Positions 29,111-39,554 of a DNA stretch of 64,000 bases are shown here, in pieces. The stretch is from an uncultured virus (IMG/VR IMGVR_UViG_3300028833_000147). Its lineage: Duplodnaviria > Heunggongvirae > Uroviricota > Caudoviricetes. The notes beneath the pieces are model-generated. The model was not told the DNA's origin. It did not search any database and saw only the letters and a list, made by a program, of their open reading frames with translations. Numbering within the stretch: the first letter of the stretch is position 1; every line of letters begins with the position of its first letter. The position numbers and the translations under genes are program-made. The stretch lies in the IMG/VR virus record IMGVR_UViG_3300028833_000147; one strand, written 5' to 3'.

Positions 29111-29683
29111 TTAAATATTAACTATGTCATATTTTCCTCTTATTTGCCTGAGTGCATGAACAACCATTGACTTGAAAGATTTTATAAGTTTATCATCATA
29201 TATCACCTTTGCGCTAGATGTAGTTATTTTGTATTCAGTAAAATGACCATCCCTTATAATGATATCTAGTAAATCGTCGACTGATATTTTTATATCGTTA
29301 TTAACTCTACATATATAAACATTTTTACCATTAAATGAGTTAGGAATCAATAATTCAAGTTCGACCACGAATTCCTCTATTGATATAACACTTTTCTTCT
29401 GTTTATTTTTCTTGACAGAGCGTTTTTCTATGTCAGTAAAATAGTCTATCACTAGATCAAGCTCATATTTGGCATCAAATTGATTATGATCAATCATTAT
29501 ATCCCTGACACGCCTTATAAGTTTTTTCTCTTTGTTCGAATAATGCTTATAGTCTTTGCTTTCATTAATTGTCACTGATAATCTTTTCATCGATAAGTTT
29601 GATGATAATTTATCATCACCACTGTCGATGATAATTGGTTCATCGATTTGTTTTAAAAGCTTAATAGCAGTATCTTTCGTCAT
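29111..29683 (-). CDS. hypothetical protein (190 aa)
   Basis: Start MTKDTAIK after AAGGAGG. The longer track ORF (to 29902) runs through a terminator and the repeat array. Confidence 0.7.
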   Translation of the reverse strand: MTKDTAIKLLKQIDEPIIIDSGDDKLSSNLSMKRLSVTINESKDYKHYSNKEKKLIRRVRDIMIDHNQFDAKYELDLVIDYFTDIEKRSVKKNKQKKSVISIEEFVVELELLIPNSFNGKNVYICRVNNDIKISVDDLLDIIIRDGHFTEYKITTSSAKVIYDDKLIKSFKSMVVHALRQIRGKYDIVNI

Positions 29684-29703
29684 AATATAAAACCTCCTTA
29701 AAG

Positions 29704-29736
29704 AATAAAAAATATTCCGGGGCGAAATGCCCCGGA
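29704..29736 (-). terminator. rho-independent terminator closing the repeat array
   Basis: TCCGGGGC-gaaat-GCCCCGGA followed on the minus strand by ATATTTTTTATT. Confidence 0.8.
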
Positions 29737-29745
29737 TAATATTTT

Positions 29746-30910
29746 GCCGAAACGATAGGACCCTCGATATAGCAATACCTATACCAGGTACGACGCTGGG
29801 CGACAAGACCTGAACACACGAAACCTTTACCGCATCGAACTGAACGGTACGGCACTGACCTATACCACCGCTGCCCGAAACCGGATATGACATTACCAAC
29901 ACATCATATCACAGCTCACTGCCCTACCTTACCGCAACTTGACAGAGCCACACCGTATGTTGCTGCACCGAAACAACACCTCATGTTATTCCACGAGACG
30001 CCACCAGAACCTAACCTGACCGCTCGGATCGTGACCTAGCCCAACCATAACCGCGAGTGACTTAACTCAACCCGTACCGAAACAATACGCACAAGACGCC
30101 ACATAACCGCGACAATAATAGCACAGGACTAAACATCACCATACCATCACTATACCTGGCCACACATGATATGACTGTACCTATACAAGACCTGACACTA
30201 CAGAACTCGACATTGTTATACCGAAACAACGCTTGACGACACCCCACTAAACCGTCACTAAACCATCCCATACTAAACCATTACTGGACAGAACGTTACC
30301 AAACATTACCCTCACAAAACGTTGATGGACCACATGCGACGTTACCGACACGCGATGAAGCTGCACGCTACGAACCTGTCCCTCGCCTTACGGTACCATA
30401 CAATACCATACCGCAACAGGACCTTATGACACCTAATCTGGCCATACCGGAACTTGACCCTGCTGGATCTAACTTGGCAATACCGCAACCACACAAAGCT
30501 GCACAGTACTCTGCCGCACCATTACTATACATATCAGCAACTTGCGGTACAATACCACCGCACTACACACAAAACTCAGTATTACATTACGACACCATAA
30601 CTTAGCACGACTCACACAACCGCACACTACGGCACCCTGACGAAAGTATGGATAACGCAACTTAACCCAACCGTCACAGCATCTAACCAATCCGAAGAAT
30701 GTGTAACCGTACCAAGACTGGACTATACATTACCGTACCCCGCCGTACCAGTACCAAACAGTGTACTACTCTACCTTGCTTTACCAGAACACTACCGATC
30801 AAAACCTCTGCAAATCGATAAATCACATTGTTGTACCAACACAATATGATGCGATGCGGTGCTGAACCGTTACTATGTGAAACATTACCATGCCAAACGA
30901 CACGTCGCCT
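29746..30910 (-). repeat. 5-nt-period degenerate repeat array (NN-xGY units on the minus strand) punctuated by 6-nt units; candidate guide-RNA array
   Basis: Plus strand parses as ACnnn/GCnnn pentamers, e.g. from 30410: accgca acagg acctt atgac accta atctg gccat | accgga acttg accct gctgg atcta acttg gcaat | accgca accac acaaa gctgc acagt actct gccgc. Strong A/C skew, non-coding. Confidence 0.9.
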
Positions 30911-30919
30911 GCACTTTAC

Positions 30920-30950
30920 GTCTCACGTCGGGGATGTAATCCCCGGAGAC
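30920..30950 (-). other. hairpin at the 5' boundary of the repeat array
   Basis: GTCTC..CGGGGAT-gta-ATCCCCG-GAGAC with no U-tract, so more likely a leader or processing element than a terminator. Confidence 0.55.
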
Positions 30951-30985
30951 AACGCGTGGTTTAACGTTCCACGAGAACGTTTACT

Positions 30986-31429
30986 TTATTTAACATATTT
31001 TCTCTTCCAACGGAGATTTGCGGGTTTTAAATTCCATGGATCTCCGTCAAGGTATTCTATCTCCCATTCGGAAGCATTTGAACCTAGAGGTAGAGGATCG
31101 AAACATGCAAGTACTGCTGCAGCTGCAGGTATCTTGGTCTTTCGACCGTTATAGGCTATCATGACTTTTCCGTCGATTTCTCGGAGTTCAAATTTTACTC
31201 CGACTACTTTGATTTCACCATTGATTGTACATCTTATTTTTGGTATGAAAGGATGTACTCTTTCATACGGATTAGCACTGCCGACATAATCCGTGATGTT
31301 ATTTATGGCTTCATCAAATGAAGAATCCATCCGTCTTAATACTTCCACATCCTGTGGTGACATGGATGACAATGTCTTCGATAACTTGATAGCCTTCTTT
31401 CTCAGTTTCAGAATATCTTTTTCAGTCAT
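30986..31429 (-). CDS. protein with a degenerate C-terminal HNH-like motif
   Basis: IEYLDGDPWNLKPANLRW resembles the HNH_3 pattern (V.H.DG...NN...NL.W) without the catalytic His; GGAGG RBS. Confidence 0.6.
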   Translation of the reverse strand: MTEKDILKLRKKAIKLSKTLSSMSPQDVEVLRRMDSSFDEAINNITDYVGSANPYERVHPFIPKIRCTINGEIKVVGVKFELREIDGKVMIAYNGRKTKIPAAAAVLACFDPLPLGSNASEWEIEYLDGDPWNLKPANLRWKRKYVK

Positions 31430-31460: not shown

Positions 31461-31490
31461 TTATTGGGCGGGGATAACCCCGCCCAATAA
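31461..31490 (-). terminator. hairpin (terminator or processing site) after the RAMP gene
   Basis: TTATTGGGCGGGG-ataa-CCCCGCCCAATAA with an imperfect U-tract. Confidence 0.6.
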
Positions 31491-31508: not shown

Positions 31509-32435
31509 TTAGAGACAAGTCTCCTCGATATAAGCATTGAGATTATCGAGGAATTCAGGATCATCTGATGTACAACCAATAATCTCTTCAGTATTATTAG
31601 CTACCATTTCACCTGTTACAGAATTTCTTATTTCTGCAACAAATGAACCATACTCCTGTGAACCTCTCCACTGACCTGTGCCGTGATCGATTCCTCTGAG
31701 TATTGTCTGTATGAGTGCTTCATCGATAGGATCCGAGTTGAGCTTGTCAACAGTAAGCGTGTACCTTATTACTGTACCCGCAGGAGCCATCTCAGACGAA
31801 GCTATTGAAGTTATCTTTCCCTGCGCTGTGTCAGCCTGTAAAGGTCTGTCACATGTAGGAAGTACATGTTTCTGAAAACGTCCTTCCTTGGGGAAACGAA
31901 CAACTGCATAGTGTCCGAAGCCATCCTTCTTGAACTCCTTCTCTGTACAGTCTTTTATGAGTTCCTCAGGGAACTCAAGGTTTACAAAGATTGGTGTGAT
32001 TGTTGTATTACCAACAATCTTTGACTTATGACTGGTGACAGAAACGCCACCGTCCTGCCTCTTAGTGGCAGTGATGCTTTCCTTGTAGAAGCCCTTGATA
32101 GTATGGCTACCAACACAAGGAATTCCTGTTACAGATCTTCTCAGGAACACGTTTGTGCCTTTTGCGGCAACGTTTTCCACTGTGTTTGTGAGAAGTTCCT
32201 CCTCTTTGGTCGGAGCATCCGGAGCCTTAGAAGCAATAAACTTCTTGTATATATCCGGATCGCCAGGTGCGGAACCGAGAAGCGGCTGCACGAACCACAT
32301 AGTTACATCATATGATGTTTTCTGAGGATCGATGACCTTAGCCTTCTTTGTCTTCTTAGCCTTTACCTCTGTTGCTACCTCTTCTGTTTTACATGCGGGA
32401 GTAGCGTTCTCCACATTTTTCTTAGTTCTTGCCAT
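31509..32435 (-). CDS. stand-alone Cas7-like RAMP superfamily protein
   Basis: RAMP hallmarks in order: beta1 + PLLGS, PCVGSHTIKGFYKE, EMAPAGTVIRYTL and the Gly-rich loop GTGQWRGSQEYGSF; GGAGG RBS. Confidence 0.8.
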   Translation of the reverse strand: MARTKKNVENATPACKTEEVATEVKAKKTKKAKVIDPQKTSYDVTMWFVQPLLGSAPGDPDIYKKFIASKAPDAPTKEEELLTNTVENVAAKGTNVFLRRSVTGIPCVGSHTIKGFYKESITATKRQDGGVSVTSHKSKIVGNTTITPIFVNLEFPEELIKDCTEKEFKKDGFGHYAVVRFPKEGRFQKHVLPTCDRPLQADTAQGKITSIASSEMAPAGTVIRYTLTVDKLNSDPIDEALIQTILRGIDHGTGQWRGSQEYGSFVAEIRNSVTGEMVANNTEEIIGCTSDDPEFLDNLNAYIEETCL

Positions 32436-32597: not shown

Positions 32598-35500
32598 ATG
32601 ATGACTTTGAAAATGAATTATAATGCCTGGTTCTATAATCAGTATAAATATCGTACTAGTAAAAGGAATGGTATCGAATCATTTACTGATACAAAGTGGG
32701 TTGATATACATAACAGATTCAGAAAGTTACAGGATATGCATTCTGATCTATTGAGAGAACAACCTTCATTGGTTCAAGGTAACAATAAAGGATTCGATAT
32801 GTTATTGGATCTCATGGCCAGATCCAATTATACATTTGAAGATCTTGATGCTTCGATGGTTGAAACATTCAGGACATCTTTACAGAATGCCATGGGATAC
32901 AATCTCGTGAATACCCATGCTGTCATGTTCCACACAAATAACCGTGATACAAAGAATGTCACTGCCGAAAAGTTCACTCATTATAAAATCATCGATGCAC
33001 CATTTAATCAGTTGCATTTCGGTCATAGAGATGAATTCATTCGTCAGAAAATACATGAGATGCACATAACCGAAAACGACTACTATATCGATATTGACAA
33101 ATTTAATACATCTACTATATCGGACGTATTGGATTTCTGTATATTGTGTACTGTCAATGGTTACATCTCAAATGATTGCAAAGTAGCAATCGATGATCAT
33201 GGCTTCAAATTCAAGGTGGGTTGGAAATCAAATGATGATGTGGACTTCATCGTTTATAAACTCGATAAATCAAAAGTCTACAAAACAAAAATCACTGTTC
33301 CTGATGATATGTCGGTAATCACATATAATGATCTTGGAATTGACAAGAACCAAGTAAACGGTTTGAAATGTATAGTAAACATATACAATGAATCATACAG
33401 AACAACCATTCCAACAGTACCGAATTTTGGTATATTCACCGATAAGGGTCTTGAGATGAGAAGTGTTCAAAATGGAACAACTGCAATGATCATCAACAAT
33501 GGAATGAATACTGTTGATCTCACAATATATGTTATTAAATATTTCCATGAAGTACCGAATATATTCCCTGCTGTCAATTATTATGACATCATGGAAAGTA
33601 AATTGGTATATGATGAAAAGTATGAAAAACTTCGTACACCCGATGGTTCATTGGTTGTTGAATCAACATACTCCGAGTCAAACAATCTGGAAATCTGTAC
33701 ACCTCCTATCACGATCGATAGGGATACATCATATACGTTTGATACAATCGTGAAATGTTTATCATTAAAAGAAACATTGATGTCTTTTAAAGAAACACTT
33801 TTGAAGATTGGTACTTTCATAAATTCATCAGCTGGTAATATGTATGAATATAACAGAACTCTTCGTCCGGAGTTGTATCATGTATACACAAACATGTCAG
33901 CAGCATTGAATTCATATAAGCGAGGTGCTATAATAACATCTCTTGTTCCTGCAGAAGATATACGTGTATTCGATAAGCTATATGACAATGTAAAAAGACT
34001 CTATAATGAATTCATCGATTTTGATGATGCTAATAAGTTTTATGACTTCCAGGAGTTGTATGGTAACAACTATGATTACACTGTAAATAGAATATGCAGA
34101 CCATTCATGAATGAGAAACTCAAACAGTTCACAAAAGCCACCGATATATCATCAAACTTTTTCGATGTTGAATCATCAACAAGATTCAATAGACCTGTGT
34201 CAGAACAGTGTTTCATATCATTGAGATACTCAGAAGAAGATCAGTCATGGTTATTTGCATATCCGAAAATAAATCATTTCCATGGTATAGGAAATACATT
34301 CTATATCAATGAGAATCTGACGGGTAAAGAAATCTTCAAGTTCTTTGTTCTGTATACAGATACAATGGATCCATCAAATAAGTATATTGAACATTTTGAT
34401 CTCAATACTGTTATTGACTTTGATCTGTTCTATGATGAGATGAATAAGTACAATGGATGTATTCGTTACTGGGACGCTGAAAGCAGACTGGCTAAAATAT
34501 CCAAAATGCTTTATAGGAAATATGACGATGAGACAGCAATCCATGTTCTGTCAAAGATGTTGAAACGAAAGATCGATGGTGATGATCTCATAAACGTATA
34601 TCCTTCAGATATCAATTATGACGCCGCAAATGTAACAAGTGACAACGTTGAAGATTATGATGAGTATTCTTACAGAGGTCCTTTCTCAATAAACTTCTTA
34701 TTCTATACTTTATCATTGTTGAATGATAACGTTGATAAACTACAAGCGTATTTCTATAGGACTCTTACTGGTAACAAATACAGCAATAGATATTCTGATA
34801 TCGACGTATCATCTGTTGTTAATTCAGATGAAAGATTTCCTCTATCATATTCTCAATATACTATATCACCATCGAGATTCCCTGATGATACGGTAACACC
34901 CATTGGTGCACAATCATTGGCATTTTATGGATTGCCGTTGTTAACAAATGGAAGTGGTTCAACAAATCTGTGTGATCCGTATAGATTCGTGTTAAACGTT
35001 TATGATGATACTACTGAATTTCCATTGATAACATCAAGTGGTTTAAATCCTGAGTATCATGTAAATTATTCAGACATAACCGAATACAATGGTGTCGTTG
35101 TATCGTATAAAGATACTATAGAATTTGGCCGTCTGATAACGAACTATATCGGATGTATGTATGATTACATTTCCAAATTGCAGACCAACTATCAATCATC
35201 ATATAATGTATCATTGGTATGTGATAAAGCCATCGAGTCGATAGACACTATTAAAAATGATATAATGTCTCTGGTGGATTCTGGTGATATTGCTGATATA
35301 GAAATTGATGATAACGTATATACGACAGACATCATTGATATCATAAACAATGATGAGTTCAAAAATAAAATGATTATCATCAAGGATTTATGCAATCAGA
35401 TAAACAGAATATCATATAACAATACAACCGATATCATTGGTTTCATTAATAAAGAACTGATATACGTATTAAAATACATATATGTCATGTTTGGTTTCGA

Positions 35501-38500
35501 TGATAATGTCAATGATAGAGTACATGCATTATATGATCATTTGAAGAAGATAAATTCTCCGATGAATCAGTATGTTTTCAACAAATGGTTGCATGACATA
35601 GATTTACACATACTTGAAACACTGGATCAACATGTTGCTTTTAATGAGAATAACAATTATTCAGATACATTGTTCAAAGATCTTCATGATGTACTTGCTG
35701 AATATATCGAACGGGTTACTCCTATGCTGCTCATGCTTAAATCCGAGATTGCTTCATTGACAGATTCTTTCTATACATCACATACTTCCAAACTGGTCAA
35801 GTTCTGTGATAAAATAATATCGGATGTGGTATTTGACATATTCACAATCTCATTCATTGATGTTGATTTTTCATCAACATCTTATTCTTCAAATCCGATG
35901 TATTTAATAATACCAATGCCGAATGATGAACATGTGGTTGCACCTTTTGGTCCAAGTATACCTGGAAATCATAATCTAGTGTTTAAGTTAGATACGTTTG
36001 TTGATAATGGTAGATACAAGATATCATCCATGTCAAATATATGTGAATATGTTTTCTTTAACGGGGAAGATATAAATAACGTATCTGCAACAGTTCTTTC
36101 TGAGAATGGTTCATCTTTAGGTAATGTTACATGTAACATTAGATTCTTACGTGCTGGATCAACAGCTGACAAGGGAGGTGTATTGGACTTCTTACCAAAC
36201 ATAGGAAGTTCAACCATTGACTTTGAGAATCATCATGAAACATTCGAAGTTGTTGATGGTAAGGTTGTTAATGAAAAGACTGCCGATATGAACTATGAAC
36301 TTCTCATAGGTAATAATTTTGAAACCCTCGACCATGTTTCAGAATATATTCTTAATCCATCAACATGGAATCCTGGTTCAATTGATAGAATCATTCTTAA
36401 TAATCAAACGATAAACAGAATGATTATTCTCGATCATGGACATAAAGAATGCATGAAGGTTTTCTTTAAACCATCACAAATATTACATACTGATCCAATC
36501 AATGGAAAATACTTCCCTGGTGAAAAGGTTTATGTTAAATTAACTGATGGATCATATATGTTTCCTATTAAAATCACCACAGTTTCTCATTCTATAGAGA
36601 AAGGATTGATTGAAGCTGAGGTTGATGAATGGAACACATCATGGTTACAAATAACCGATAAAGACATGATTCATGATTTCTTGATGGATACAGTTGAATG
36701 TGAAGTTATAGATGACAGTATCAGAAACTTCATGGATGAATATTCCAATGGAGACTATATGTCTTTCTATAATCCAGGATACAATAATGATTCATATATA
36801 ATGGATGATAACTTTGAGTCATGTTATAATCTTCCCGGTGACCCAATATATGTCACTTCAAATGCACCATTTGTTTATACACGTTTGAATTGGATGTTCA
36901 ACGAAGATGTTCCAAACAGATTCATTGATGAAGAACATAAACAATATAGATTCATCTATATTGGTGAAGGATTCATTAATGATGAAGATGGTATCAAGAT
37001 TAATATGATTAATCATGATTTCAATGATAAAACTCTTCCTGAAAAATATCCGATATTAAAAAATGAACCCAATGATCATATCATAAGAAGAGCTGAGATT
37101 GTTAAATTTAATCAAGTGATTGAAGATAACATGGCAAAAATTGTTGGTAGTGATGATTATGAAGGAATCAAACCAAGAATTGCAAAGCTACAAGAACAGT
37201 ATGATCGATCAGAAGACTACTACGAAAAGAAGAAAATCTTCGGTGAGATTAACGATCTTGAAATAAAAGAGAAGATGTGTGAAGACACAATTGCTCGTAT
37301 GAAAGAATTGTTATTCCAACCAGAAGGCATGACGACATGGTACAATGTTGGATCACAGGATACAGCATTGGTATATATCGATAATGGTCGTGCTGAAAAG
37401 TTCTCTCCAATCTTCTTATCAAACATCCGTGATATATGTTATGATGATAAAATTAATGTGTTCCTATATGACTGGGAAAATAAACATTGGATTGATCCTT
37501 CAACATACACAATCACATATGAGATCGTGGATGGTGTACAAATCGATGAACGAGATGATTACACAACAAATGATGTTATGACATCATTAACAATATCACC
37601 TACAACTGGATTCATTCCTTCGAGAAAGATTCTTGTATATTTTGGATATAATAAATCTGATATATATGATGATATCGAGATGAAACCAAAAACAATCAAT
37701 GTTAGATTTAAACCATTAATGATCCTTGACAAACCTGAAGATTATAACGATCCATATCGTGCGGTCAAAATAAGGAAACATTTTGATGGGTATGAGAAAT
37801 ACTCAACAACGACAAACGAGAATGGGGAAATAATCATAAAGAGAATCAAGCGTAGTGGTAAATTTAACTATGCTGCGGGATTTAGGTTATGTGATGTATC
37901 AGTTCATGATGATAATGGTGATCATAGTTATAATGACATTGTTGAGATGAAGGTTAAATCTCCATTCAAAGGATTCTCAACAAAAAGCAAGTTCCATCAA
38001 TTGACATATTCGGCAACTGTTAATGCACCAATAGATTCTTTCTCATCTAATCAGACAATCAAATTGATTTGTATTTCCAATAATGAAAATAATTCATATG
38101 ATGGAAACATTTCAACGGTTATGTTTGAAGGAACAACATCAATGGATGGTTTAAACCAATCAATCAACATAACAAAGTCATCATTGTCGAATTATGAGTC
38201 GGGTAAATTCATATGTACAGTTCTTAAAGATGACAAATATGATTGTGTCGGTGGTGTAATAACTGTCAATGTTACAAGCACTACAAAAGACATATACGGT
38301 GATTGGGTCACAGTGCCTTCTGAATATATGATCACTCGAGAATTACCTGACGAATTCATGATAAAGTTGGCCAATGCAATTCCAGATAGTAATGTAACTG
38401 TTACGTTAGAGAATAAATATATCAAAGATATGGATGACATTGTATATGAAGATAATCATAGCATATATAATCCATATGAGTATTATTATGATTCTCATAA

Positions 38501-39554
38501 TAAAAAACGTGTTCCAATATCAGATGTGAAAACAGGTTCACATGATAGACGTCTGGTTATCGATACAACTATCAATCCAAATATCCATTTGATCAAATCC
38601 ACGTATATGGGAATATGTAGATATTCTTTAACTCATATTCCTGCAGACGGAATCATTGATATGACAGGTTATTTACCAACACCTTTATCAAGAGAACGTT
38701 ATGAATTCTGGGTAAATGGAAGATGTGTATCTGATAAGAAAGATCTATTAATACTTTCACCAACATCAATTCAGCTATGCAACATGAAATCATTAAAGAA
38801 TTTCGAATGCATTGAGCTAATCGATGATGTTGATAATGATAATGATTTATTCCATCAGGGTCCTGTCTATGTTGATATCAATGGAAATACATATTCCAAT
38901 TACAAATTGGCCATGTTGAGTAATTCGAAGATCAACAAACAAAATCTATCATTTATATTCAATGCGAATAACCATGAAAAAATAAATGATTATTCCAAAT
39001 GCATTGTTGATCCAAACAATCACGATATGGAAGCTGATATACTCTCAACCATAACATTTGATGATAGTAATGTCGACTACAATAAGCTCAGTAACATCCC
39101 ATCAATAAACGGAGTTTCGTTGTTCCATACTAAGCTTGACAATATAGGTTTATCTGAAATAGATAATATAGACATAATAAAAGCATTTGATAGAGTATGG
39201 AAACGTGAAGCTGCAACAAATCCATTCTTTATTAACACACATAGATGTGATACAAACATTACAAACAACAAATCTGGATCGGTTATACATATAAAGAAGA
39301 TTACCGAACCCAATTGGCATGGTTTGGACATTGACACAACAAATATGTTTGCTGTTCATGTTACAGGCCCAATTGATAAGTATTTCTCATTGTATGTATC
39401 TAATCTGGAGGATGGTGTGATCGATGATATTAATAATACATTGAAAATCATTCCATTCGTTTCATCAAGTGTTTATATTCTACTTGATTCATCTTATGAT
39501 GGATTATGGTTACATTCAACATATCCAAACACTAATCCAATTCACATAATTTAA
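32598..39554 (+). CDS. very large virion structural protein (baseplate/tail-associated)
   Basis: 2318 aa, follows a late-type promoter motif, beta-rich segments such as RYEFWVNGR. Function inferred from size and context only. Confidence 0.6.
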   Translation: MMTLKMNYNAWFYNQYKYRTSKRNGIESFTDTKWVDIHNRFRKLQDMHSDLLREQPSLVQGNNKGFDMLLDLMARSNYTFEDLDASMVETFRTSLQNAMGYNLVNTHAVMFHTNNRDTKNVTAEKFTHYKIIDAPFNQLHFGHRDEFIRQKIHEMHITENDYYIDIDKFNTSTISDVLDFCILCTVNGYISNDCKVAIDDHGFKFKVGWKSNDDVDFIVYKLDKSKVYKTKITVPDDMSVITYNDLGIDKNQVNGLKCIVNIYNESYRTTIPTVPNFGIFTDKGLEMRSVQNGTTAMIINNGMNTVDLTIYVIKYFHEVPNIFPAVNYYDIMESKLVYDEKYEKLRTPDGSLVVESTYSESNNLEICTPPITIDRDTSYTFDTIVKCLSLKETLMSFKETLLKIGTFINSSAGNMYEYNRTLRPELYHVYTNMSAALNSYKRGAIITSLVPAEDIRVFDKLYDNVKRLYNEFIDFDDANKFYDFQELYGNNYDYTVNRICRPFMNEKLKQFTKATDISSNFFDVESSTRFNRPVSEQCFISLRYSEEDQSWLFAYPKINHFHGIGNTFYINENLTGKEIFKFFVLYTDTMDPSNKYIEHFDLNTVIDFDLFYDEMNKYNGCIRYWDAESRLAKISKMLYRKYDDETAIHVLSKMLKRKIDGDDLINVYPSDINYDAANVTSDNVEDYDEYSYRGPFSINFLFYTLSLLNDNVDKLQAYFYRTLTGNKYSNRYSDIDVSSVVNSDERFPLSYSQYTISPSRFPDDTVTPIGAQSLAFYGLPLLTNGSGSTNLCDPYRFVLNVYDDTTEFPLITSSGLNPEYHVNYSDITEYNGVVVSYKDTIEFGRLITNYIGCMYDYISKLQTNYQSSYNVSLVCDKAIESIDTIKNDIMSLVDSGDIADIEIDDNVYTTDIIDIINNDEFKNKMIIIKDLCNQINRISYNNTTDIIGFINKELIYVLKYIYVMFGFDDNVNDRVHALYDHLKKINSPMNQYVFNKWLHDIDLHILETLDQHVAFNENNNYSDTLFKDLHDVLAEYIERVTPMLLMLKSEIASLTDSFYTSHTSKLVKFCDKIISDVVFDIFTISFIDVDFSSTSYSSNPMYLIIPMPNDEHVVAPFGPSIPGNHNLVFKLDTFVDNGRYKISSMSNICEYVFFNGEDINNVSATVLSENGSSLGNVTCNIRFLRAGSTADKGGVLDFLPNIGSSTIDFENHHETFEVVDGKVVNEKTADMNYELLIGNNFETLDHVSEYILNPSTWNPGSIDRIILNNQTINRMIILDHGHKECMKVFFKPSQILHTDPINGKYFPGEKVYVKLTDGSYMFPIKITTVSHSIEKGLIEAEVDEWNTSWLQITDKDMIHDFLMDTVECEVIDDSIRNFMDEYSNGDYMSFYNPGYNNDSYIMDDNFESCYNLPGDPIYVTSNAPFVYTRLNWMFNEDVPNRFIDEEHKQYRFIYIGEGFINDEDGIKINMINHDFNDKTLPEKYPILKNEPNDHIIRRAEIVKFNQVIEDNMAKIVGSDDYEGIKPRIAKLQEQYDRSEDYYEKKKIFGEINDLEIKEKMCEDTIARMKELLFQPEGMTTWYNVGSQDTALVYIDNGRAEKFSPIFLSNIRDICYDDKINVFLYDWENKHWIDPSTYTITYEIVDGVQIDERDDYTTNDVMTSLTISPTTGFIPSRKILVYFGYNKSDIYDDIEMKPKTINVRFKPLMILDKPEDYNDPYRAVKIRKHFDGYEKYSTTTNENGEIIIKRIKRSGKFNYAAGFRLCDVSVHDDNGDHSYNDIVEMKVKSPFKGFSTKSKFHQLTYSATVNAPIDSFSSNQTIKLICISNNENNSYDGNISTVMFEGTTSMDGLNQSINITKSSLSNYESGKFICTVLKDDKYDCVGGVITVNVTSTTKDIYGDWVTVPSEYMITRELPDEFMIKLANAIPDSNVTVTLENKYIKDMDDIVYEDNHSIYNPYEYYYDSHNKKRVPISDVKTGSHDRRLVIDTTINPNIHLIKSTYMGICRYSLTHIPADGIIDMTGYLPTPLSRERYEFWVNGRCVSDKKDLLILSPTSIQLCNMKSLKNFECIELIDDVDNDNDLFHQGPVYVDINGNTYSNYKLAMLSNSKINKQNLSFIFNANNHEKINDYSKCIVDPNNHDMEADILSTITFDDSNVDYNKLSNIPSINGVSLFHTKLDNIGLSEIDNIDIIKAFDRVWKREAATNPFFINTHRCDTNITNNKSGSVIHIKKITEPNWHGLDIDTTNMFAVHVTGPIDKYFSLYVSNLEDGVIDDINNTLKIIPFVSSSVYILLDSSYDGLWLHSTYPNTNPIHII

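Follow-up and report, generated by a model that had tools for sequence, protein, structure and literature searches.

A one-base-offset array of five-nucleotide repeats beside a solo RAMP-fold gene in a gut jumbo phage, a probable guide array of a VIPR system

The window analysed here is a 64,000-nt stretch of DNA from an uncultured virus of the Caudoviricetes (IMG/VR record IMGVR_UViG_3300028833_000147). It carries jumbo-phage genes, including two RNA-polymerase-beta-like genes and genes for a DNA polymerase, a thymidylate synthase, virion proteins and a tail fibre, and the runs in which the locus is found are gut metagenomes, several of them recorded as sheep or goat. On a single strand, the minus strand, lie in order a 308-aa gene for a solo RAMP-fold protein (vipr), a hairpin, a 147-aa accessory gene, a structured leader, an array of about 33 units and a terminator-like hairpin (Table 1). 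Within the 64-kb window no CRISPR array or other cas genes accompany vipr and the accessory gene, and neither of the two operon genes matches a cas family. The 5-nt AC/GT periodicity that marks the array is confined to 29.6-30.8 kb of the window. A single contig from an independent sample (X4) crosses positions 29500-30971 with four differences, and the array is therefore not an assembly artefact. A coding explanation for the end of the array was rejected: a 263-aa ORF with a GTG start (29111-29902) overlaps it, and an in-frame ATG at 29686 avoids the overlap.

Table 1. Features of the vipr locus, in window coordinates
Feature	Position	Strand	Remark
Intrinsic-terminator-like hairpin and U-run closing the array	29716..29736	minus	
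vrRNA (VIPR guide) array, putative	29749..30909	minus	about 33 units of G+(GY-NNN)n, mostly 5-9 repeats
Junctions, part 1	29777, 29823, 29864, 29895, 29931, 29967, 30003, 30044	plus	just 3′ of ACC
Junctions, part 2	30076, 30106, 30143, 30179, 30220, 30251, 30277, 30308	plus	just 3′ of ACC
Junctions, part 3	30344, 30410, 30446, 30482, 30518, 30554, 30594, 30634	plus	just 3′ of ACC
Junctions, part 4	30670, 30711, 30747, 30783, 30804, 30835, 30866	plus	just 3′ of ACC
Eroded junction, presumed	near 30382		in the array; from a homologous unit in L139
Conserved structured leader 5′ of the array	30920..30979	minus	predicted small pseudoknot and stem-loop
Accessory (vap-like) gene, 147 aa	30986..31429	minus	weak C-terminal HNH_3-like motif
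G+C-rich terminator-like hairpin between vipr and accessory gene	31461..31490	minus	
vipr, solo RAMP (Cas7/Csm3-like) protein, 308 aa	31509..32435	minus	from fold and G-loop alignment

Searches of Pfam, PHROGs and PADLOC gave the RAMP protein no name. Its assignment comes from structure prediction, for which 73 homologues (20 long and 53 short) raised the pLDDT from 32.8 for the single sequence to 83.5, and the resulting model matches the Csm3/Cas7 RAMPs (Foldseek E 9e-7; Z 11.6, rmsd 4.2, 175 residues aligned). The G-loop aligns with that of the SUSP1 Vipr (E 1.7e-4, probability 49.5) over only the C-terminal 46 columns, and in this alignment D177-W178-R179 of SUSP1 corresponds to Q255-W256-R257. 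Conservation of these residues among the 73 homologues is high, with Q255 in 73, W256 in 70 and R257 in 68; by inspection of the motif, the counterpart of SUSP1 H17 is probably S/T55. The published account of the SUSP1 protein, so far as its available text goes, has D177 and H17 reading the first G of the scaffold and W178 the second, with R179 helping to hold the pyrimidine (bioRxiv 10.64898/2026.04.26.720927). The database record of SUSP1 Vipr (L141:28474-29061) has V at residue 175 where the structure preprint has T175, and its remaining numbered residues agree with that preprint. Vipr proteins of the long clade carry an insertion of about 35 residues before the thumb (window positions roughly 31970-32100, the coordinates being approximate) and a C-terminal extension, and the short homologues are without both.

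The accessory protein matches HNH_3 at E 0.004, which is below the cut-off, and has a tyrosine at what we take to be the first histidine of the HNH_3 motif, so that a nuclease activity is doubtful. A protein with 35-46% identity to it is encoded at the same place in three related loci (L001, L002, L003). The leader that follows also heads all three arrays of a related phage record, G001; L002 and L003 have a different leader from that of the window and G001. In the predicted pseudoknot and stem, 70 of 70 cells are paired and 4 of 18 pairs are compensatory, in four sequences only, which are the same four from which the structure was derived. A search of Rfam gave no match near the gathering level. 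The operon arrays of L001, L002 and L003 end in the same hairpin as that of the window.

Several observations concern the surroundings of the operon. Other contigs of samples X4, X7 and X9 share the leader (window 30908-30980) and then run into different array-like sequence. The second leader copy in X4 has a depth of 52.5 against 47.6, and these similar depths suggest either that the same phage has further arrays beyond the window or that turnover takes place at the leader end. A 2318-aa ORF (window 32598-39554), transcribed away from vipr, has no Pfam match and one weak PHROG match, and its homologue occupies the same place in L001, L002, L003 and L006. No acquisition-type gene is shared among the 7 neighbour proteins scanned (from five clusters of many, plus the G001 flanks), which matched SSB, SMC-like, integrase, RecT and HNH proteins. 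One RNA run, X5, contains contigs over parts of the array and of vipr at a depth of 3-12; those over the distal array are 216-231 nt long, have a depth of 3-4.6 and each cover several units, as a precursor, uncut RNA or DNA carry-over would. As contigs only, the X5 data carry no information on transcription, ends or strand, and the gap in their cover at 30332-31267 has no evidential weight.

The array itself is best described on the minus strand. Its autocorrelation has peaks at lags 5, 10, 15/16, 21, 26, 31, 36 and 41, which indicate a 5-nt period with a slip of one additional base about every 36 nt. A segmentation model with no boundary-specific state divides the array into 193 pentamers, 35 hexamers and 3 tetramers. 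The pentamer consensus is YNNNG, with G at position 2 in 160 of the 193 and T or C at position 3 in 178, and the first position is free (the internal first base is G in 47 of 159 repeats). The simplest description of a unit is G+(GY-NNN)n, with a length of 1+5n. A model-free check supports the additional G: for two GT 6 nt apart, G stands before the second GT in 31 of 32, and for two GT 5 nt apart in 16 of 75 (Fisher p 5e-14). Spacings between slips are mostly 26-41 nt (36 nt in 12 of 30), and their coefficient of variation is 0.31, compared with 0.88 for random placement. Segments of 5-9 repeats number 29 of 33, against 9.7 expected with random slip placement (0 of 20,000 simulations), and make up 18 of 25, 56 of 70 and 38 of 51 segments in three related arrays. 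Some erosion is also visible, in the form of three 1-nt deletions, some eroded repeats and two units fused in register in a 66-nt block at 30347-30412, where the presumed boundary now lacks its extra base. Agreement between NN pairs at a distance of three repeats is slightly above that of shuffled pairs (0.626 vs 0.524, p 0.007, one of six lags, over 29749-30909).

These figures bear out the two-level grammar that the preliminary description had proposed, and the segmentation that it suggested places the hexamers at a regular spacing, unlike random indels in a 5-mer satellite. Its estimate of 30-35 units agrees with the present count. Its details stand up in part. All ten of the hexamer positions that it listed begin with ACC, and nine of the ten are true net slips; the tenth, 30374, is none, since the array is in register from 30344 to 30374. 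The runs, described as 4-6 pentamers, contain 3-8 pentamers plus the slip. Hexamers that recur are no special words: 20 distinct hexamers among 31 is close to the 22.9 obtained by column shuffling (p 0.07). Of the hexamer only its ACC (GGT on the minus strand) is fixed. The proposed analogy with a CRISPR repeat does not hold as worded: the hexamer consists of an ordinary repeat plus one invariant extra G, and this single G is the mark.

Arrays of related phages were compared, as had also been suggested, and they reveal that the units behave as modules. There are three distinct long-clade operon arrays, in L001 (the same as in L005, L007 and L135), in L002 and in L003/L004. In addition, G001 has two further arrays (L132:17130-18000 and L139:15270-16499) that lie far from vipr and have the same leader and grammar, and the latter has three units in common with the window array. 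Among 129 clean units, 22 homologous pairs were found, against 0-1 in 20 shuffles; the alignment coincides with the 3′ slip in 21 of these pairs and with the 5′ start in 18. A search blind to unit calls returned 8 runs shared by the window and distant arrays. In both arrays a slip closes 7 of these runs and opens 4, and a weak one among the 8 is probably due to chance. The order of units is not kept (the first unit of the window lies near the end of L001), and units are common to phages whose Vipr proteins are only 57-65% identical. Whole units are duplicated in tandem in L003, and a 10-repeat unit of L001 includes a 7-repeat unit of the window. In samples X7 and X9, which belong to two studies, 76 nt are missing at 30516-30593 (with 6 ambiguous letters in X7), and the deletion corresponds to two whole units, 30521-30556 and 30557-30596. 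A replacement in X9 (29970-30090) starts at a junction and ends inside a unit. Units are thus discrete modules that are deleted, duplicated and reordered whole between relatives, and gain and loss of units, including a deletion of exactly two, is seen.

With a solo RAMP-fold gene and an HNH-like accessory gene upstream of it in a jumbo phage, the array points to a VIPR system, a CRISPR-related DNA-targeting device described in 2026 (bioRxiv 10.64898/2026.04.26.720920). According to the available texts, one SUSP1 Vipr binds each 5-nt repeat and pairing with DNA is gapped (10.64898/2026.04.26.720920; 10.64898/2026.04.26.720927), and VIPR represses transcription of rival elements (10.64898/2026.04.26.720920; 10.64898/2026.10.15.759431). 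On the SUSP1 model, the array here would be transcribed as one precursor, on which Vipr would polymerise with a subunit on each 5-nt repeat; Vipr would grip the G-Y bases and offer the variable bases to double-stranded DNA at a 3-nt period, and binding would repress genes of rival mobile elements or of the host. Two features would be peculiar to this form. The residues that read the first G are replaced (D177 by Q, H17 by S/T), which may be what leaves the first scaffold position free inside a unit; a free first base would fit a loss of G1 contacts in the 308-aa Vipr. The extra G shifts the register by one base, so that a filament could not run through it, and each unit is probably one short guide. 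We give a probability of about 0.78 to the reading of the locus as the guide array of a VIPR system in a ruminant-gut jumbo phage, with the mechanism proposed. Cutting of the RNA at or next to the extra G is slightly favoured, the remaining weight falling on units that act as beads on uncut RNA. Against the reading as VIPR guides stand the target searches, which yielded none, the length of the units, which are shorter than the published 9-16 repeats, the lack of a 3′ tail on each guide, the short span of the similarity to SUSP1 Vipr and the X9 replacement with its end inside a unit.

The features that connect the locus with VIPR are a solo RAMP protein with an RRM core, thumb and G-loop, a minimal locus of vipr and a vap-like gene, and YNNNG pentamers. 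The discovery paper lists the repeat variants NNNGG, YNNNG and NNNNG beside GGY/NN (bioRxiv 10.64898/2026.04.26.720920), and in its available text it mentions 'staggered arrays', with vrRNAs from '1 nt overlapping' positions. Compared by text, the array is most like these YNNNG or staggered VIPR arrays: both have a solo RAMP protein with one accessory gene in a phage and a 5-nt scaffold with a fixed G-Y. The junctions here have 1-nt offsets with no intervening sequence and no separate tail, which may be the same arrangement as the back-to-back guides of staggered arrays. The two differ in that each junction in the window adds one base, compared with the '1 nt overlapping' of a figure legend in that paper, and the available text gives no unit length, invariant-G rule or type for staggered arrays. 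In comparison with published VIPR more generally, the protein is larger (308 aa vs about 20 kDa) and the units are shorter (5-9 repeats vs 9-16). Type II VIPR, as in SUSP1, has the same RAMP fold with a G-x-W-R G-loop and the same arrangement of vipr, accessory gene and array on one strand, and stand-alone arrays elsewhere, of which G001 has two, are a further likeness; orphan vrRNAs are reported in the available text of 10.64898/2026.10.15.759431. The window has neither the 9-16 GGY/NN repeats per guide nor the structured 3′ tails between units of type II. The guides of SUSP1 measure about 100 nt and each carry a pseudoknot 3′ tail, in contrast to some 33 units without tails that follow a single 5′ leader here; the window also has a free first scaffold base and Q in place of D177, and its accessory protein shows no similarity to SUSP1 Vap1.

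Two other kinds of guide array were considered, and both differ from the one in the window in its basic repeat. Class 1 CRISPR arrays likewise have a leader, modular units, a terminator, deletion of whole units and a RAMP protein. A CRISPR array is defined by near-identical direct repeats of 23-47 nt between its spacers, in contrast to the boundary of a single base seen here, where there are no such direct repeats and no cas family matches in either operon gene. TIGR-Tas systems combine a Nop-domain Tas protein with a phage guide array that has a unit of about 36 nt, a length similar to that of the units here. The present array differs in its 5-nt period, in unit lengths that vary in multiples of 5 and in its partner, which is a RAMP and not a Nop-domain Tas protein, and its autocorrelation has no peak at lag 18 (0.227), the period given, along with dual repeats, for TIGR-Tas in the available text of bioRxiv 10.64898/2026.10.21.760802. 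The same language-model paper reports non-canonical 5-mer VIPR arrays, and its available text mentions neither staggering, hexamers nor register (10.64898/2026.10.21.760802).

The locus is a new member of VIPR in the least-described array form of that system. Tail-less, offset arrays occupy one sentence and a figure legend in the available text of the discovery paper (bioRxiv 10.64898/2026.04.26.720920). The available texts of four preprints (720920, 720927, 759431, 760802) do not state the invariant-G rule or the turnover of whole units, which their figures or supplements may show; among them staggering is named in 720920 alone, as is YNNNG among the first three. The locus supplies an exact and testable grammar, with one invariant G for each guide and three free bases in each repeat. 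It also supplies evidence from populations that gain, loss and reordering affect whole units, and it links the freed scaffold base to a changed residue in the G-loop of Vipr. A tail-less guide unit of 36 nt would also make multiplexed VIPR arrays simple to build.

Within the VIPR reading, the pairing code has to be considered. The published two-base, skip-one code is the probable one and serves as our default. In class-blind counts of long-clade changes, in contexts that are not fully independent, the extra G changed in 0 of 88 cases, G2 in 6 of 523 and Y3 in 28 of 517; the two NN bases changed in 43 of 519 and 32 of 531 (75 of 1050 together) and the third variable base in 67 of 433. The higher rate at the third base agrees with an NN-plus-skip rule. 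Within the 22 homologous pairs NN conservation is by construction, because these were picked by NN identity. An alternative, which we hold to be doubtful, is that three bases are read per repeat, each unit being an unbroken target copy of 15-27 nt into which GY is inserted after each third base; the base opposite the skip position would then be stored and would pair. A fuller version, a shade less probable again, is that this clade dropped the G1 pocket and reads all three bases, with units that are verbatim target copies of 15-27 nt, added singly and closed by a lone G.

Units do parse exactly as G+(GY-NNN)n, as a three-base code would have it. Variation at the final hexamer base resembles that at other third bases (12 of 89 vs 67 of 433), distant arrays have the same third base at 35 of 46 positions, and all 73 homologues have Q in place of the aspartate that reads G1. 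The retention between arrays may, however, reflect common descent, as scaffold variants are shared too, and in the jumbo clade the third base is the least constrained position. Decoded units also have more stop-free wobble frames than expected (117 of 125 vs 111.6, p 0.038, and in a second count 335 of 360 vs 326.7, p 0.04), and 19 of 23 third-base changes are synonymous in the sense frame. These signals are weak and several tests were run; most of the synonymous changes are transitions, four-fold boxes show no surplus of third-base transversions (8 of 12; 18 of 29), and NN shows no association with the following third base (p 0.27; p 0.22). Start codons and RBS are not significantly enriched in decoded units, and local searches yielded no contiguous target. 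A third base that pairs with the target or records it would have a bearing on the acquisition of VIPR guides. A three-base code, if true, would be a contiguous form of VIPR intermediate between the published gapped code and CRISPR, and it would open the writing of these guides to direct test.

Searches for targets in the window and the fetched loci, by skip and contiguous codes, gave none. With 84 units against 260,114 bases (skip-0, skip-1 and contiguous), real units performed about as well as shuffled ones, a larger local search matched 4 of 469 units against 4 of 469 shuffled, and 117 units including the extra arrays of G001 again gave no target, real equalling shuffled. Six exact-match scans of collections, one unit each, returned 45, 0, 0, 9, 0 and 2 matches, exact matching being blind to targets with one mismatch. 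In the scan with 45 matches, 0-3 of 7 third bases agree and no second unit lies nearby; the corresponding figures are 0-3 of 7 in the scan with 9 matches and 1-2 of 8 in that with 2. Agreement at third bases is thus at chance level throughout, none of the matches has a second unit close by, and all are treated as chance.

The failure of every single-unit target search is one of the points in favour of a second alternative, namely that the slips are evolutionary seams, left by insertion or recombination, and that the working guide is longer or is a sliding window on uncut RNA. Modular gain and loss shows only that whole units move, RNA contigs span several units, and both the in-register fusion at 30347-30412 and the 10-repeat unit of L001 with a 7-repeat window unit inside it are compatible with joints that do not delimit guides. 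Yet a shift of one base would break a filament of the SUSP1 type with its one subunit per 5 nt, and the extra G does not vary. Arrays with a unit in common differ in the neighbouring units, so that a longer guide would not be conserved, and processed vrRNA boundaries are reported for staggered arrays in a legend within the available text of bioRxiv 10.64898/2026.04.26.720920. Seams of this kind are improbable as the explanation of the slips, and one guide per unit is preferred.

That the array is a functionless, degenerate 5-nt satellite with random one-base indels, for which the three 1-nt deletions and eroded repeats might speak, is next to untenable given non-random slip spacing in 4 of 4 arrays tested, neighbouring repeats that are not alike (similarity 0.509 vs 0.525), no identical units among the 30 window units compared, an array that in related phages is linked to a RAMP gene, a leader and a terminator, and units common to phages with such divergent Vipr proteins. 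The preliminary description had likewise argued against microsatellite slippage from its units, and homologous units that are reordered between arrays, with a similarity that stops at slips, strengthen that argument.

The same punctuation extends to more distant relatives of the 308-aa protein. A scored array on the strand of the gene is present at 46 of 79 distant homologue loci, a redundant set with many near-duplicate phages in which weak arrays fall below the scoring threshold, and each of the 46 has an array in which GG follows 70% or more of the slips. Rates of change at the third base and at NN are similar in the short clade (227 of 1368 and 470 of 3412, respectively). An array at L046:5093-8563 is at least 3.4 kb long, has about 100 slips and reaches the end of the locus, with GG after only 52 of 103 slips and TG after many. 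In arrays of the short-Vipr clade (L008-L086) the third scaffold base is often A, and the last triplet of a unit is strongly A-rich, its final base being G in 26 of 353 cases.
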